Virus record (IMG/VR): IMGVR_UViG_3300027432_000003
Location: 1 to 39,237 of that record
DNA: 39,237 nucleotides
Origin: a virus
Strand: one strand, 5' to 3'
Numbering within the stretch: position 1 is the stretch's first letter; each line of letters begins with the position of its first letter. This document shows, in pieces, positions 26,410 to 38,261 of this stretch. A program made the translations under genes and the position numbers. A model generated the notes under the pieces. It did no database searches, was not told the origin of the DNA, and worked only from the letters and a program-made list of their open reading frames with translations.

Positions 26410-26754
26410 TCATATCGGTTCTATGGTTATCACTGCACCCTCATCGCCGCGCTTCACCTTTCGACAAGTAACGTGAAGTTCTGAAATCACCTTCCAGTTG
26501 TCGTCTGGCGGCAATGATGCAATCAAGGATTGTGCTTGTTCCGGCGTCAAGGTCGCGGTTCCGCTGGTCTGAAATAAGGAAATCAATTGTAACACGAAAC
26601 CTTTGACGCAACGGCGCTTCCACTCGCGGTTTTTTTTGTCCACGATGGCATACATCGAGTTTTTTATCGACGGAGTGTGTCCCATCGTAAATACCTCCAA
26701 ACAAATGCGGGTTGCGACGCTTGAAAGATTCGCTGGCGTTGGGAAAGTTTTCAT
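26410..26754 (-). CDS. rusA: RusA-family Holliday-junction resolvase whose family motifs are split between this frame and the overlapping frame 26441..26758
   Basis: This frame has the N-terminal GHTPSIKNSMY (PPSxN-like) and the C-terminal PPDDNWKVISELHVTCRKVKRGDEGAVITIEPI. The catalytic-type RNRDLDAGTSTILDCIIAA occurs only in the other frame. See the corresponding finding. Confidence 0.6.
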   Translation of the reverse strand: MKTFPTPANLSSVATRICLEVFTMGHTPSIKNSMYAIVDKKNREWKRRCVKGFVLQLISLFQTSGTATLTPEQAQSLIASLPPDDNWKVISELHVTCRKVKRGDEGAVITIEPI

Positions 26755-26765
26755 TCATTTTTTTG

Positions 26766-27107: not shown

Positions 27108-27815
27108 TCATAGCAGCACGCCTTGGTTTGCCTCGCGTTCCAGACGGGAGCAGGCGGATGCAAAATATTTTGGGTCTTTTTCGATGCCTATGAAATTCCG
27201 GCCCGTGCGCAGACAGGCTACGCCGGTTGTCCCGCTTCCTGTAAATGGGTCGCAGACCAAGCTGCCTTCATCCGCAAATACCTTTACCTGCCGGATCATC
27301 AAGTCTATCGGTTTTGGTGTCGGATGGTCAGGACTTGACTGCACTCCGAACAAATGGAACTTGTTGTAGGCTTCGTAAGGCAGCCCCTTCGCTATAAAAC
27401 TTTCTCCCGGTCTGAACAGCCGCAGGCAGAGTTCGGTGTCGGACATCATCTTTCCGTTGTAGTTCGGGATGGCGTTGGGCTTGTGCCAATACATCAAATC
27501 CCAGCCGAGGCCATTTGCTTCGGCCAGCTTCAAATAGGTCGGCAGCAGCTTTTGCGAGAACCACACGATGAGATTCTTGCCGAACATTGGAAGCACGGCG
27601 TTGAAGAATGCCTCGGGTTCAAAGTCAGTCCCAAAGCTTTCGCGGATGGTGTCGAGGTGTGTGCGAGTTCGGTAGAGTCCCCCGCCTTTGCTTTCAAAAT
27701 TATATGGCGGGTCGGTTATCACGGCATCAATGCCAGCCAGCGACGGCAGGATTTCCAGACAGTCCCCGTTGTAGAGTGTCGCTGAAAAATGACCCCTAAC
27801 AAATCGCTGGAACAC
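27108..27815 (-). CDS. DNA amino-methyltransferase A (N6-adenine/N4-cytosine, beta class)
   Basis: The DPPY motif (AVITDPPYNF) precedes the AdoMet motif (VCDPFTGSGTTGVACLRTGRNFIGIEKD). GTG start at 27815. Confidence 0.85.
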   Translation of the reverse strand: MFQRFVRGHFSATLYNGDCLEILPSLAGIDAVITDPPYNFESKGGGLYRTRTHLDTIRESFGTDFEPEAFFNAVLPMFGKNLIVWFSQKLLPTYLKLAEANGLGWDLMYWHKPNAIPNYNGKMMSDTELCLRLFRPGESFIAKGLPYEAYNKFHLFGVQSSPDHPTPKPIDLMIRQVKVFADEGSLVCDPFTGSGTTGVACLRTGRNFIGIEKDPKYFASACSRLEREANQGVLL

Positions 27816-27972: not shown

Positions 27973-28194
27973 CTATCTGCGTCGAGTTTCCTTTTTTGTC
28001 CCTTGCGTCTTGGCGTATTCCAGCCATTGATTTGCGAGATCGGTCATTTCTTCGCCAGTCAGATTCACGCACTTGTCCGGCTCGCTGGCATCTTCGAGCG
28101 CGAACAGTCGGTTGTGGACGGGCAGCGTTGAGTCAGGCTCGATTTCATAGACCTGCTGCGCGCCGTGAGTTTTGGTTGTGATTATCAGTTTCAT
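27973..28194 (-). CDS. Small hypothetical protein (73 aa)
   Basis: MKLIITTKTHGAQQVYEIEPD... ATG 28194 overlaps the stop of the Dam-type gene as ATGA. It contains the heptamer A_AAA_AAG near its 3' end. Confidence 0.55.
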   Translation of the reverse strand: MKLIITTKTHGAQQVYEIEPDSTLPVHNRLFALEDASEPDKCVNLTGEEMTDLANQWLEYAKTQGTKKETRRR

Positions 28195-28856
28195 GGTGCT
28201 GTGTTTCCGCCGCGTAAGTCCACGAAGCAGCCAGCCAGTCGGCCATGCTGCACCGCGTCCCAGAGCGCATTTGCGTTTTCGTCGTCCCACGTCACCAGCA
28301 TGGAGGGCGCACCGGCTGTCCCGCCTTTCGTGCCGTTGACGTGATAGAATGAGAGTCGGCCTTTCAGGAAGCAGACTGCCGTGGCTTTGCCCCAGATGTA
28401 GTCGAAGAATTGGCGCGTCTCCGTTCGTGCGAAGATAAGCGCGGTTACATTTTTGTGCGCGCTGCATCGCCCCATCCACTCGCCGGTTTTCGGGCCGTAA
28501 GGCGGATTGCACCACACGCGACCTGACCACGGCTTGATGAGTCCGTTGTCCTCGATGGTGTAGTGCGCCTTCGCCGTTTCCCACGGGCGTTTGATTGGAG
28601 CGCACGGGTCGAGGTCGAACGGCCACGGAACTTCCTCGCCATCTTCCCGCGTTTGTTCCAGCGCCTTGATTATCTGTGGGGGTGTCAGCCATTCCTCTTT
28701 GCCGTTTTCGAGATCACGGTCATGCGCGAACCCGATGCGTTTTTCTTCATTCGACGGGACGGCCAACAATTCCTTGCAGACAACCGCCTCATCGCTACCA
28801 GTTTTGGAGTAGCGTGTTTCGGCGGTCGCTGCGGGTTTGAGAAAGTCAGTTTGCAT
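28191..28856 (-). CDS. Phage Dam-type DNA N6-adenine methyltransferase
   Basis: EWLTPPQIIKAL, FDLDPCAP, WSGRVWCNPPYG, FARTETRQF and LKGRLSF follow the pattern of the phage N-6-adenine-methyltransferase family. Confidence 0.85.
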   Translation of the reverse strand: MQTDFLKPAATAETRYSKTGSDEAVVCKELLAVPSNEEKRIGFAHDRDLENGKEEWLTPPQIIKALEQTREDGEEVPWPFDLDPCAPIKRPWETAKAHYTIEDNGLIKPWSGRVWCNPPYGPKTGEWMGRCSAHKNVTALIFARTETRQFFDYIWGKATAVCFLKGRLSFYHVNGTKGGTAGAPSMLVTWDDENANALWDAVQHGRLAGCFVDLRGGNTAP

Positions 28857-28890: not shown

Positions 28891-29592
28891 TCACAAGAGC
28901 ACCCCATCTAGTTCGTGTGCGAAGCGGTCACACGCCAGTTTGTAGTATTCAGCATCCCGCTCGATGCCGATAAAGTTCCGCCCCGTTCTCATGCAGGCGA
29001 TGCCGGTGGTTGCGCTGCCCATATACGGGTCGAGCACTGTCGCGCCTTCTGGGATTCGCGCCTTTTCCATACACCACGCCATCAGCGGCACTGGCTTTTG
29101 GGTCGGGTGGCATTTGTCGGTCTGGTTGTGCTTGTGGATTGCGTAGGGATACACTTTCGCCGTCACGCCTTCCGCATCGCACCATGCCAGTTCAGCATCC
29201 GCGAAGTTGTCCACCGTCTGCATTTTATACCACACGAAGAAGCATTGCGACGGCGGCAGCACCATGTTGTTTGCGCCCCATATCACGCGCACAGTTCCGA
29301 GAGTGAGCAGCAGTTCCATCATTTCTTGCGGCGGTTTCTTGTCCCATTGCAGCCCGTTGGTTTCCGCTCCGTAGCCCTTGAATCTGGTCGTGAAGAAGCC
29401 TTTCTCGAAGCGTTTGATTCCATACGGCGGATCAGTGACCACGGCATCGCACTGCATTGGCAGCACCTCAGAGCAGTCGCTATGTATAAGAGTCGCAGAC
29501 AAGTGACCCCTAACAAATCGCTGGAGCACAACACCGCCCCCGCTCTTGGCTTCGGCGGGCGTCTCTGGTGGTAGTGTGTCGGTCGTGCTCAT
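28891..29592 (-). CDS. DNA amino-methyltransferase B (paralogue of A with a different central region)
   Basis: AVVTDPPYGI ... LDPYMGSATTGIACMRTGRNFIGIERD. It shares LQRFVRGHxSATL and the C-terminal ...GVLL with MTase A. Confidence 0.85.
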   Translation of the reverse strand: MSTTDTLPPETPAEAKSGGGVVLQRFVRGHLSATLIHSDCSEVLPMQCDAVVTDPPYGIKRFEKGFFTTRFKGYGAETNGLQWDKKPPQEMMELLLTLGTVRVIWGANNMVLPPSQCFFVWYKMQTVDNFADAELAWCDAEGVTAKVYPYAIHKHNQTDKCHPTQKPVPLMAWCMEKARIPEGATVLDPYMGSATTGIACMRTGRNFIGIERDAEYYKLACDRFAHELDGVLL

Positions 29593-35203: not shown

Positions 35204-36188
35204 GGGAAGGAATATCCCCAAGCCAGCAAGCATCATTTCCACGCCGTCCTAAAATCTATGGTTTCGGGAACTGCGAAACCAAAGCGGGGAACATCGAAGA
35301 AGCGTTCCCGCGCCGATTGAAGCGGAACTCAAATTCCTTTGCGTAGTTATGAAGATATTGTTTGGAAACATGAATGTGAGTGCCACGGATGCCACCCTTG
35401 AGGTGTTTCCAAAAGTTTTCCAGATTGTTGACATGCGTATCGTTCAAAACGTATTCGTGCGCTCCGTGATTCACAGTCTTGTGGGTGAATCCTTTTTTCG
35501 CCAGACCCTTGTAGGAACGCAATTCGTCAGTGTGAACCGTAGAACCTTGTGCGACGTTTTCCTCAATGATTGGCTTCAAGGTTTTGCCCGCGACATTCGG
35601 AACAACTTTCGTCATCACTTGGCCCTTGCGTTGCAGCATTCCAAACACAATCGTTTTGTTCGCTGCTCCGCGTCCGCGAACTCCGTGCGTGCGACCGCCG
35701 ACATAGGTTTCATCAATTTCAACGTCACCAAACAGCGGGAACTCTCCGTCAACCTGCTCCATGTGTTCGCGGATTTTATGACCCATGCGAAACGCACATT
35801 TGTAAGTCACGCCAAGTTTCCGCATCAATTCCATGGCGGGAACGCCGTGGCGGGAAGTGGTGAAAAGGTAAATGGCGTAAAACCACAGTTGCATTGGCGT
35901 CCGGCTATCCTCAAACAGCGTTCCGGCTGTCGGGTGGATATGGTGACCGCACCACTGGCAGGCATAAGCGCGAACCTTGCTCATCCTCGACCAATTGGAT
36001 TTCTTGTCGCACTTCGGGCATTTGTAGCCCTGTCCAAAACGGCTGTCGAAAACATGTTGGATGCAAGTCTCGTCATCCGGGAACATTTCGTAAAATTCCT
36101 TAATCGTCAGGCTGGCTTTCTCGTTTCTGTTCTTCATGCCCCAAATATACACCCAAAGGCGTACTTACGTCAAGGGGATAATTCCGGG
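35204..36188 (-). mobile_element. IS1595-family element 1 (boundaries approximate)
   Basis: The right end, CCCGGAATTATCCCCTTGACG (inward reading, 36169-36188), is homologous to the IR of element 2. The left-end candidate GGAAGGAATATCCCCAAG (35206-35223) matches it only imperfectly. Confidence 0.4.
35256..36137 (-). CDS. IS1595-family DDE transposase (copy 1)
   Basis: Zn-ribbon CPKCDKK...CQWCGHH, HTH-like MELMRKLGVTYKCAFRMGHKIR, VEIDETYVGG, and a DDE_Tnp_IS1595-like C-terminal part. I chose ATG 36137 by analogy with copy 2. Confidence 0.85.
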   Translation of the reverse strand: MKNRNEKASLTIKEFYEMFPDDETCIQHVFDSRFGQGYKCPKCDKKSNWSRMSKVRAYACQWCGHHIHPTAGTLFEDSRTPMQLWFYAIYLFTTSRHGVPAMELMRKLGVTYKCAFRMGHKIREHMEQVDGEFPLFGDVEIDETYVGGRTHGVRGRGAANKTIVFGMLQRKGQVMTKVVPNVAGKTLKPIIEENVAQGSTVHTDELRSYKGLAKKGFTHKTVNHGAHEYVLNDTHVNNLENFWKHLKGGIRGTHIHVSKQYLHNYAKEFEFRFNRRGNASSMFPALVSQFPKP

Positions 36189-36238
36189 TTGTTATGACAA
36201 TCTTGCAAGATTATGGCATTTTTTAGACACCCATCTTT

Positions 36239-36262: not shown

Positions 36263-36370
36263 GCTTGACGCGGGGCAATGGGGTGAGGCATGATTCGCCT
36301 AGATGCAGAACTGTACGGCGAAACCTCGTTCAAAGAATGGGCCTCCCTGTTCTCTGGAAAGTATTTCGTT

Positions 36371-37141
36371 ATGATTGTCATCTATGCAGATGAATCTGGA
36401 ACGCACGACCCAAATGGAAAGCTAACCGGTTCTGCATATCCCATTATCGCCGGATTCGCCGCCAGGAAATCTGTTTGGGATAAATTCTGTGTTGGGTGGA
36501 AGGCTGTTTTGGATAAATATGACGCTCCATACTATCACGGCAGGGAATTAACAACGGCCAGAGTGGCGGTTTTGGAAAACAGAAAAGAAAATAAAGAATT
36601 ATCAAAAAATCCGTACTATATTCGGAAGTGGGATTTTAAAAAAATCGAGTCGTTCAGAAAATCTTTAGCAAAGGTCGCATCCGCAGATGGTAAAATTCCA
36701 ATCGTCGGCGGAATGCATCTAACAAATTTTAACAAAATCAAGGATGAGTTTTCGGATAAAGACCCATATAAATGGGTCATGAGTCATTTTTTCTCTGTGT
36801 ATCACAAGGAAACAGGGCTTCAGTGGGGAAATTTCAAATCGGATGTTACTTTTGTATTTGACCAAAACGAAAAACGAAAATGGGTTAATTCTGTTCATGA
36901 AGTATTCGATGCATACCAAAAAAAAGACCCAAGAATGTCCGGTCCGAATTTTGGTGATAAAAAGAAATTTCCGTTTTGGCCACTTCAAGCTGCCGATTTT
37001 CTTGCCTATCGGATGAGGCAATTGGCGGAGGACAACGATAGTGGCCAATTACAAATTGATGAAGTGGACCGTATTCTTCTTAAGAATCTATATAAAAGCG
37101 CAACAATCATAAACCCTCAACTAAAACCATTCTTAAAATGA
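36371..37141 (+). CDS. DUF3800-family protein (passenger gene)
   Basis: The N-terminal MIVIYADESGTH and the C-terminal FWPLQAADFLAYRM fit the DUF3800 pattern. A sampled line in this gene gave about 32% G+C. The ORF track starts at 36290. Confidence 0.7.
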   Translation: MIVIYADESGTHDPNGKLTGSAYPIIAGFAARKSVWDKFCVGWKAVLDKYDAPYYHGRELTTARVAVLENRKENKELSKNPYYIRKWDFKKIESFRKSLAKVASADGKIPIVGGMHLTNFNKIKDEFSDKDPYKWVMSHFFSVYHKETGLQWGNFKSDVTFVFDQNEKRKWVNSVHEVFDAYQKKDPRMSGPNFGDKKKFPFWPLQAADFLAYRMRQLAEDNDSGQLQIDEVDRILLKNLYKSATIINPQLKPFLK

Positions 37142-37276: not shown

Positions 37277-38236
37277 TTACGCCGCTTGCCACGTCCCTGC
37301 TTCCGGAAGTCCGCCAATGAGTTTGGCGTACTGGAGCCGACGACCAATGATGCCGATGATGCCTTTCAGGAATCTGCCGGAATCAGTGTTCTCACGCTCA
37401 TTAAATCGGAACGCTTGCTCGTCGAGGTAACGAAACAAATGAAAAGGTTCAACGCTGATATATGTCCCGCGAATCCCGCGCTTGAGCAGGCTCCAAAAGT
37501 TTTCCAGCCCGTTGGTGTGGACATTGCCGCGAACATATTCCTTCGCATGGTCAATCGCTTGGTGAACGTAATCCTGACTCAAGCCATTGTACGAGGGAAG
37601 CGCATCGGTGAACACCTGCGAGCCGGTTTCAACTTGCTGGCGAATTTCAGTTTGAAGGATATTGCGGCGAGCTTTTGCAACGTGCTTCAGTTTAATTTTT
37701 CCACCCCGCTGCAAAAGTCCCATGACAATCTCTTTGCCGGTTCCACCCGTTCCGCGACCGCGCTTGCTGCGTTGCGCGTTGTTCATGCTGCGGGCCTTGC
37801 CGCCGATGTAAGTTTCATCCGCTTCCACTTCGCCGGACAGTTTGTCCATGCTGCCGTTCTGCATCGCCAGCCGGATACGGTGAAGCATGAACCACGCTGT
37901 CTTTTGGGTGACGCCCAAGGCGCGGCCAAGCTCGCACGAACTGATTCCGTTCTTCGCGTTCACAATCATCCAGAATGCAGGCAACCATTTGTCCAGCCCA
38001 AGGGGACTGTCCTCGAAAATGGTGCCAACCTTGACGGAGAATTGTTTCTTGGTGTCGCGGCATTTCCAGATTTTGCGCGTCTCAAGGAAGGCGACGTTGG
38101 ACTTTTGGCAGCAAGGACAAACCACCTTGCCGTCAGGCCAGCGAATCGAAACCATGAACTGCAACGCCTTGTCGGCATCCGCGAAGTATTTAATTGCGCC
38201 GCTCAGCGTCTCGGGAAACTCGTTGTTTTCTTTCAT
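37277..38236 (-). CDS. IS1595-family DDE transposase (copy 2)
   Basis: CPCCQKS...KCRDTKKQFSVKVGTIFEDS, GISSCELGRALGVTQKTAWFMLHRIR and VEADETYIGGK. By eye it is only distantly similar to copy 1 at the protein level. Confidence 0.85.
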   Translation of the reverse strand: MKENNEFPETLSGAIKYFADADKALQFMVSIRWPDGKVVCPCCQKSNVAFLETRKIWKCRDTKKQFSVKVGTIFEDSPLGLDKWLPAFWMIVNAKNGISSCELGRALGVTQKTAWFMLHRIRLAMQNGSMDKLSGEVEADETYIGGKARSMNNAQRSKRGRGTGGTGKEIVMGLLQRGGKIKLKHVAKARRNILQTEIRQQVETGSQVFTDALPSYNGLSQDYVHQAIDHAKEYVRGNVHTNGLENFWSLLKRGIRGTYISVEPFHLFRYLDEQAFRFNERENTDSGRFLKGIIGIIGRRLQYAKLIGGLPEAGTWQAA

Positions 38237-38261
38237 GCCCCAAATATCGCATAAAGCCTAT

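Follow-up and report, generated by a model that had tools for sequence, protein, structure and literature searches.

The DNA considered here, IMG/VR virus record IMGVR_UViG_3300027432_000003 (positions 1 to 39,237; this whole stretch of 39,237 nucleotides is referred to as the window), carries on its minus strand two open reading frames (ORFs) that overlap almost completely, over ~315 nucleotides. ORF X (26410-26754) comprises 114 amino acids and has its own ATG at 26752-26754. ORF Y (26441-26758), which lies in the -1 frame relative to X, comprises 105 amino acids and starts at an ATG of its own (26756-26758), 4 nucleotides upstream of that of X. X has conserved N- and C-terminal modules with an unconserved linker as its middle part, and the conserved parts of Y are an N-terminal motif and a catalytic strand-helix module, in which the catalytic motif of the resolvase RusA (FRVTIDFLISDQRNRDLD...TILDC) is read. 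An earlier note on this DNA had described RusA-like elements that are split X-Y-X over two open overlapping frames; this split is borne out, and the ORFs and peptides it quoted are correct. On balance, we lean toward the interpretation that X and Y are two overlapping, fully translated genes that give complementary parts of one RusA-like nuclease.

In the direction of transcription, the locus begins with the Y N-terminal motif MNENFPNASESFKRRNPHLFG (26696-26758, minus strand, as are all the features below), which is under Y-frame selection despite its overlap with the first ~17 codons of X. The X N-terminal module TRICLEVFTMGHTPSIKNSMYAIVDKKNREWKRRCVKGFVLQLISL (26575-26712) comprises a strand, a P-S-x-K-N loop, and a long helix and is under selection in the X frame. 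Y reads through this region as a linker (GIYDG...PLRQR, 26600-26695) that is unconserved as a protein, with a Y synonymous fraction of 0.01-0.07, yet is free of stops. The Y catalytic module FRVTIDFLISDQRNRDLDAGTSTILDCIIAA (26507-26599) corresponds to the RusA strand, the D70/D72 motif, and the next helix, and the codons of its two catalytic Asp residues lie at 26552-26554 (D69) and 26546-26548 (D71). X passes through it as a Thr/Ser/Gly-rich linker FQTSGTATLTPEQAQ (26530-26574) that is variable and stop-free, has an X synonymous fraction of 0.13, and shows its peak of variation at X second codon positions. The X C-terminal module SLIASLPPDDNWKVISELHVTCRKVKRGDEGAVITIEPI (26413-26529), again under X-frame selection, contains an invariant Asp-Asp pair (26500-26505), which by its position in the sequence is the likely candidate for an equivalent of RusA D90/D91, and the C-terminal strands. 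The Y tail RRQLEGDFRTSRYLSKGEARR (26444-26506) is unconserved, varies in length among loci, and ends at a chance stop. Where the modules meet, the DNA is dual coded: in the first overlap (26575-26599) X reads FVLQLISL, the end of its long helix, and Y reads FRVTIDFL, the catalytic strand, with both readings constrained; in the second (26507-26529) X reads SLIASLP and Y reads ILDCIIAA.

The assignment of selection to frames is based on an alignment of X codons from 27 sequences, 19 of which are nonredundant (<85% nucleotide identity), with columns counted from window X residue T15. In columns 1-32 and 67-100 the variation falls mostly at the third position of X codons, and in columns about 44-66 it falls mostly at the X second position, which is the third position of Y. 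The synonymous share of pairwise codon differences tells the same: it is 0.26-0.54 for X in the N- and C-terminal segments and 0.24-0.44 for Y in the middle, against 0.01-0.13 in the nonselected frames. Over the Y catalytic module the X residues are highly variable and change nonconservatively, while the Arg, Asp, Arg, Asp, and Asp residues of Y are invariant in the 19 sequences, although synonymous pair differences number 90-108 at the Arg codons. At the N terminus, many Y-type proteins have a motif in common, M..(D/E)EL...FPNAS.SF...N, and in the soil subgroup to which the window belongs the synonymous fraction of this region is 0.30 in Y versus 0.11 in X. Purifying selection thus acts at the protein level in both frames.

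It is very improbable, in our judgment, that X alone encodes a protein and that Y, with no functional product, owes its conservation to an ancient double frameshift in a RusA gene, as its relic or by-product. Gene callers do usually report X, and out-of-frame remodeling of genes has been documented in E. coli (PMC8788219). Such a relic is, however, difficult to reconcile with variation in the middle segment that peaks at the X second (Y third) position around invariant Y Arg and Asp residues, with a Y frame that is open over about 100 codons against expectation, with an N-terminal motif under Y-frame selection, or with the strong coevolutionary signal that AlphaFold2 (AF2) picks up in Y, where the predicted local distance difference test score (pLDDT) exceeds 90.

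Selection in the two frames not only alternates but also coincides at the borders. X-frame selection spans columns 1-45 and 62-100, Y-frame selection spans columns 39-68 in addition to the Y N terminus, and in columns 39-45 and 62-68 both frames appear constrained. The X residues under dual constraint are a Gln (18/19) and a Leu (19/19), these two with 72-84 synonymous pairs, and a Ser (16/19); on the Y side of the first overlap [FY], [VLI], [ST], and [IV] are conserved, and the third codon position hardly varies at columns 42, 43, and 45. Near invariance of Y third positions beneath the X residues Gln, Leu, and Ser is not expected from selection on Y only. Along the locus the order of selection is therefore Y (N-terminal motif), X (strand-helix), Y (catalytic strand-helix), and X (Asp-Asp and C-terminal strands). 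The X-Y-X part of the topology in the earlier note holds, but the own start and conserved N-terminal motif of Y were missed there, so that the full order is Y-X-Y-X.

A second line of evidence comes from the distribution of stop codons. For the 19 sequences, the synonymous codons of the selected frame were resampled and stops were counted in the other frame. The Y frame over the X N-terminal module contained 0 stops where 23.3 were expected, and the X frame over the Y catalytic module contained 0 where 13.5 were expected. The Y tail past the conserved helix, which served as an internal control, had 27 stops versus 24.9 expected. Depletion of stops within each ORF, combined with a normal rate in the Y tail, indicates that selection keeps both frames open inside their own ORFs.

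The two-frame architecture is not peculiar to this phage. A search with the X-Y-X hybrid found three independent homologues that match frame X from end to end, the middle included, and in their DNA the -1 frame is open too and has a RusA-like motif in its middle. Scans of metagenomes and IMG/VR contigs added 35 further loci from soil, peat, and marine samples, whereas a pattern scan of GTDB genomes gave no relatives and tblastn with Y found nothing in isolated phage genomes. No stop interrupts the middle of the Y frame in any of the 27 distinct sequences, and its consensus there reads [FY]R[VLI][ST][IV]x[FLVI]x[VIFM]SDxRxRD[LI]D[GA]...T..DC..A, and the architecture is kept in relatives with only 35-60% protein identity. 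Such recurrence, like the switching of selection between codon positions, goes far past what chance would give. At the protein level, an exhaustive search with ORF Y returned only Y-type proteins (134 representatives at 50% clustering). When 5.8 billion proteins were searched with the hybrid profile, the 228 clusters obtained were exclusively of X type, and no Pfam domain was present in any of them. In sum, about 350 database proteins and about 27 distinct loci share the arrangement. A single-frame version was not seen: among 255 related proteins, 119 were Y only and about 120 were X only, and none (0/255) carried the Y motif in frame with the X N- or C-terminal motifs. Even two very distant Y-type proteins have an X-type ORF with its own Met in the +1 frame.

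These data leave next to no room for a sequencing or assembly artifact or a recently decayed pseudogene, in which indels would have disrupted an ordinary rusA. A homopolymer does lie near the first apparent junction, as would suit such an error. Yet an independent 11-kb assembly from another project (L005) is 100% identical across the gene, the run of eight A residues (A8) included, the layout recurs in all relatives, whether from soil, peat, or marine metagenomes, none of the related proteins is single frame, and both frames are under purifying selection. On the strength of the identical independent assembly and the family-wide architecture we reject the artifact, an outcome that the earlier note had named as one that would refute it.

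Some members of the family deviate in ways that deserve mention in their own right. The C terminus of P0009, a Y-type relative of locus L010, switches to an X-type ending (…KVQPGDEGASIEIVSLT), which reflects either a natural 1-nucleotide indel variant or a late fusion of the frames through an assembly error. The distant member P0096 (locus L042, 953-1540) has a degenerate Y catalytic motif, with SNQRRTDLSG replacing SD.R.RD.D; to judge from this sequence, some lineages may have lost catalysis and yet keep both ORFs. Four distant Y-type proteins, P0030, P0096, P0124, and P0133, share the Y-frame C-terminal ending G.LPF, which suggests that in this subfamily the Y tail is not dispensable.

How do the two products relate to RusA? 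Critical residues of RusA, a homodimer of 14-kDa subunits, are D70, D72, K76, and D91, and N73 is an invariant residue (PMC10956419). Taken individually, window X matched no Pfam or PHROGs family and window Y matched phrog_34 ("RusA-like Holliday junction resolvase") weakly (E=0.059), and the X-Y-X hybrid of the window matched phrog_34 with E=3.9e-7. Once the E. coli sequence was confirmed, a genuine RusA profile was built. In hhalign, the Y-type profile aligned with it at a probability of 93.3% (E=2.7e-7), residues 41-88 of Y falling on RusA 42-89 and Y D69/D71 on RusA D70/D72, and the X-type profile gave no signal (0.1%). This agrees with the earlier claim that the middle of X lacks the acidic motif and that Y supplies it. 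Accordingly, the D70/D72 equivalents, conserved in 19/19 and 18/19 sequences, are located in Y and not in X. Almost half of the Y-type ORFs (47/104) matched phrog_34, with a best E value of 2.4e-13, and the Y catalytic segment matched PDB entry 1q8r.

Joining the frames improves the match. Composite D1, which consists of X to column 46 followed by Y from column 33, reached 94.6% (E=7e-8) against the RusA profile and was collinear with RusA 11-85, starting from PSIKN aligned to PPSNN; within it the X N-terminal module aligns with RusA 11-53. Counted per member, phrog_34 was matched by 14/19 D1 composites, 10/19 simple hybrids (S), and 0/19 X sequences alone. X alone found no PDB sequence match either, and the other refuting outcome named in the earlier note, that X alone would align with RusA, is thereby excluded. 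In a shuffle control with two divergent members, the real X C-terminal module added 5-8 bits over its shuffled versions and extended the phrog_34 match to profile positions 186-193, the end of the profile. The hybrids also match phrog_11573 (function unassigned, 110 positions) across the Y-to-X junction. As far as sequence can tell, phrog_11573 may be the closest single-frame relative, and an uninterrupted ancestral protein probably spanned the junctions. The X Asp-Asp, at the expected place after the helix, is conserved in 18/19 and 19/19 sequences, and the alignments to E. coli RusA all end short of residue 91.

The kinship is a distant one. The threshold of Pfam PF05866 was reached by none of X, Y, and the hybrid, and across the family PF05866 was matched by 0/19 composites at E<=0.01 and by 1/104 Y-type ORFs (E=5e-4). 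Since only PHROG 34 and profile-profile comparison detect the relationship, we regard the locus as encoding a distant RusA-like nuclease rather than a member of PF05866. As a separate observation, phrog_1532 (function unassigned, 80 positions) was matched over the catalytic module by 40/104 Y-type ORFs. Both phrog_1532 and phrog_11573 derive from sequenced phages and may, from these matches, represent RusA-like proteins that have gone unrecognized.

Structure prediction was run with AF2 on X alone and on Y alone. For X the model contains a strand (17-22), helices at 30-38 and 40-60, a helix at 71-78, and a strand at 106-111. Residues 41-60 have a pLDDT of ~86, and the long helix ends at residue 60, where X selection ends. 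For Y the model shows a short N-terminal helix and a linker with a pLDDT of 55-67, followed by an extended segment and a long helix with a pLDDT of 86-96; the catalytic strand has no partner strands. For the bases that X and Y share, structure is predicted in both readings. Foldseek matched the X model to no solved fold. Neither product by itself forms a known fold, and in these models each resembles a fragment of a small alpha/beta domain.

A credible though clearly less probable explanation is that both ORFs are real, translated genes but that X has no relationship to RusA or that the two products act independently. The alternation of conserved segments might then, with the same limited likelihood, reflect nothing more than the inability of two proteins to share tight constraint on the same bases, alternating constraint being a general property of overlapping genes. 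X alone indeed has no RusA similarity or fold match, its N-terminal module adds next to nothing to the profile score, and Y alone already yields most of the RusA signal. Independent genes would not explain, however, why the X C-terminal module, which lies directly downstream of the Y catalytic module, has an invariant Asp-Asp and extends the RusA-like profile match to its C-terminal end when shuffled versions do not, why the match to phrog_11573 crosses the Y-to-X junction, or why the composite is collinear with RusA from the PSxN motif on. Moreover, Y lacks conserved C-terminal strands of its own, having an unconstrained tail instead, and its strand is unpartnered in the model.

If both ORFs are genes, both need a start. 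In each of the 19 nonredundant loci the X ORF opens with an ATG of its own, 4-20 codons ahead of strand 1 and in most cases shortly after an X-frame stop; a Y start (ATG or GTG) lies 4-40 nucleotides upstream of the X ATG in most of these loci. In the window the two starts, 4 nucleotides apart, form the sequence ATGAATG (26752-26758, minus strand), which is preceded by an A7 run without a Shine-Dalgarno motif; the choice of start at this site could set the ratio of X to Y.

The alternative to separate starts is that a single RusA-like chain is made by programmed recoding, with a -1 switch from X to Y, a +1 switch from Y to X, and perhaps an initial switch from Y to X. We consider this rather unlikely, somewhat more so than two genes acting independently, and the same low expectation extends to the idea that the first switch uses the A8 tract of this phage by ribosomal or transcriptional slippage. 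The tract (T8 on the plus strand, 26630-26637) lies within the X codons D-K-K-N, offers the valid heptamer A_AAA_AAC, and was the site at which the earlier note had placed a -1 slip. It is located outside the conserved architecture, it is absent from all 18 other nonredundant relatives (a homopolymer of at least six occurs only in the window), and phased X_XXY_YYZ heptamers (columns 22-47) occur in only 5/19 sequences, at two different positions. Nor is the tract special in its surroundings: 27 A/T or G/C runs of similar length occur in the window, five other 8-mers among them. We therefore reject A8 as a conserved slip site; it is private to this phage lineage. RNAalifold, applied to the 19 sequences across both junctions, predicted 0 pairs, although Shine-Dalgarno-like stimulators were not searched for separately.

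At the second junction, where a +1 shift had been proposed near GCC GCC AGA CGA (about 26503-26515), the case for recoding looks better at first sight: every member has tandem rare-type Arg codons (AGA/CGA CGA) in Y, and a +1 shift there would yield Asp-Asp. X-frame selection, however, already reaches L67/P68, upstream of this site, which speaks against the shift. That hybrids score as RusA-like and that the ancestor was probably contiguous across the junctions is compatible with recoding as well. Against it, stops are excluded from stretches that would go unread and yet occur at the expected rate in the dispensable Y tail, both frames have start codons of their own, and there is dual constraint at both junctions. 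One ribosome, in a single pass, could not make use of such a dually constrained segment in both of its readings. We know of no bacterial precedent for two or three efficient shifts without canonical signals in a gene of 115 codons. The absence of conserved recoding signals, together with the exclusion of stops from stretches that would not be read and the presence of own starts, favors two translated overlapping genes.

Two translated genes that make up one nuclease would work as follows. X and Y would each be translated from their own start codon to their own stop, and each product would be conserved where the other is a tolerated linker. Y would supply its N-terminal motif and the RusA-type catalytic strand-helix with two metal-binding Asp residues, and X would supply the first strand, the P-S-x-K-N loop, the long helix, the Asp-Asp, and the C-terminal strands. 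As the order of the pieces along the DNA equals the order of elements in a RusA-like resolvase, we infer that the two polypeptides assemble; in the same vein, translation of both ORFs, association of their products, and cleavage of branched DNA by the complex are all inferred. The assembled nuclease would serve the replication/recombination module of the phage. The arrangement likely originated from two compensating frameshift mutations that would have bracketed the catalytic segment of a once-contiguous gene, after which the second frame would have come to be expressed independently.

Several observations weigh against this proposal. X-type sequences give no signal against the RusA profile on their own, and in the shuffle control the X N-terminal module added only 0-2 bits while the gain from the C-terminal module was modest. 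At the position aligned with K76 the 19 sequences have Ala (12), Ser (4), Thr (2), or Val (1), and at that aligned with N73 they have Gly (12), Ala (5), or Asn (2); judged by these residues, catalysis may differ from that of RusA or be lost. One might speculate that the invariant Lys-Asn of the X motif P-[SA]-x-K-N compensates for the missing lysine. The stop test draws on 19 sequences that are kin, so that products of its probabilities overstate significance. As for starts, the scan revealed no Y ATG ahead of the X ATG in 3/19 nonredundant loci. The Y frame of L013 has its first ATG 38 nucleotides downstream of the X ATG and that of L020 23 nucleotides downstream, and the only upstream candidate in L016 is a GTG that was spotted by eye. 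At both starts the Shine-Dalgarno motif is weak or missing and hence uninformative.

Extended to the whole family, the proposal is that a large group of uncultivated phages encodes an obligate two-chain Holliday junction-type nuclease in which the elements of one ancestral single-domain fold alternate Y-X-Y-X over ~315 nucleotides, a statement that we would hold to be true or false with equal readiness. The same even judgment covers, jointly with it, the notion of an "interleaved split gene," in which, following a compensating pair of frameshifts, an enzyme is rescued by translating both frames independently and not by reversion or recoding. In the literature, we found no split, overlapping, or frameshifted RusA. 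If two chains do form the enzyme, this would be a natural instance of a small protein fold split into complementary fragments that two frames with nearly full overlap encode, an arrangement that would have persisted in hundreds of divergent phage lineages. It would reveal a route by which a frameshift-disrupted gene can stay functional without reversion or programmed recoding. The locus would offer a tractable system of ~115 codons for the study of dual-coding constraints and fragment complementation, as well as of start codon choice between starts 4-40 nucleotides apart in different frames. It would also call for caution in annotation, as gene callers give one ORF only and both are hypothetical proteins with no Pfam domain. 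With one ORF called, labeled hypothetical, and devoid of a Pfam domain, these phage genomes give no hint of a resolvase-like function. Should frameshifting operate after all, a multi-frameshift gene without signals would be equally unusual.

Genes for portal, capsid, gpA terminase, and DnaB are present in the window, which represents the genome of a tailed phage. The X/Y locus is situated in the replication/recombination module, downstream of ERF and adjoining methylases, and it is at such a position that lambdoid phages carry rusA. The methylases seen are two N6_N4_Mtase genes (27108-27815 and 28891-29592) and one Dam. The earlier note had compared the locus with a C5-MTase of the same 0/shifted/0 topology; no such gene turned up in a scan of 20 ORFs. 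The Dam methylase (221 amino acids, PF05869; 28191-28856, minus strand) is overlapped for ~500 nucleotides by an ORF of 239 amino acids without a Pfam match (27973-28692, minus strand), on the same strand and in another frame; this might be a second long same-strand overlap or a chance open frame. Near one end of the window lie two IS1595-family transposase genes (DDE_Tnp_IS1595 plus zinc ribbon; 35256-36152 and 37277-38236, both minus strand), ~1 kb apart, with a DUF3800 gene (36290-37141) in between. Each of the transposase genes has a long antisense ORF on the plus strand, at 35349-36197 (282 amino acids) and 37286-38254 (322 amino acids), respectively.

Among known systems, RusA itself (E. 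coli rusA/ybcP and its lambdoid-phage homologues; PF05866, PHROG 34) is the obvious reference. The strand, the R-x-R-D-x-D motif, and the helix with a conserved Asp match RusA 56-86, and a P-S-x-(K/N)-N loop near the N terminus and an Asp-Asp before the C-terminal strands, the candidate counterpart of D90/D91, occur in the same order. The total conserved length is likewise small, and the gene likewise adjoins phage replication genes. RusA, however, is one polypeptide of ~14 kDa that forms a homodimer (PMC10956419), whereas here its elements are divided between two overlapping ORFs. In addition, Y has an extra conserved N-terminal motif without a RusA counterpart, the Pfam model is unmatched, and the equivalents of K76 and N73 are not conserved.

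The Rz/Rz1 spanins of phage lambda are an overlapping or embedded gene pair whose products form one complex. Like these genes and the overprinted genes of phiX174-like and other viruses, X and Y lie on the same strand in two frames, have own starts, are both selected, and presumably cooperate. In known overlapping pairs one protein is usually overprinted de novo and unrelated to the other. Here, in contrast, the products resemble complementary fragments of one ancestral single-domain enzyme, and the conserved segments interleave four times over about 315 nucleotides.

With genes that use frameshifting or slippage, such as dnaX, prfB, those of insertion sequence transposases, and the phage tail chaperone G/GT, the locus has in common that consecutive conserved segments lie in different frames and, in the window phage only, that an A-rich heptamer lies near a frame switch. 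It differs in that there is no conserved slippery site or stimulator, that two or three switches would be needed and not one, and that the nonshifted frames stay open, each with its own start. Finally, the out-of-frame remodeled families described by Watson, Lopez and Bapteste (2021, PMC8788219) resemble the present one in that an ancestral ORF is in part of the family read in another frame, and their alternative-frame stretches are short and probably disordered, as are the linkers of X and Y. The difference is that in the phages described here the original reading of the remodeled segment is still conserved and is apparently expressed from a second, overlapping ORF.

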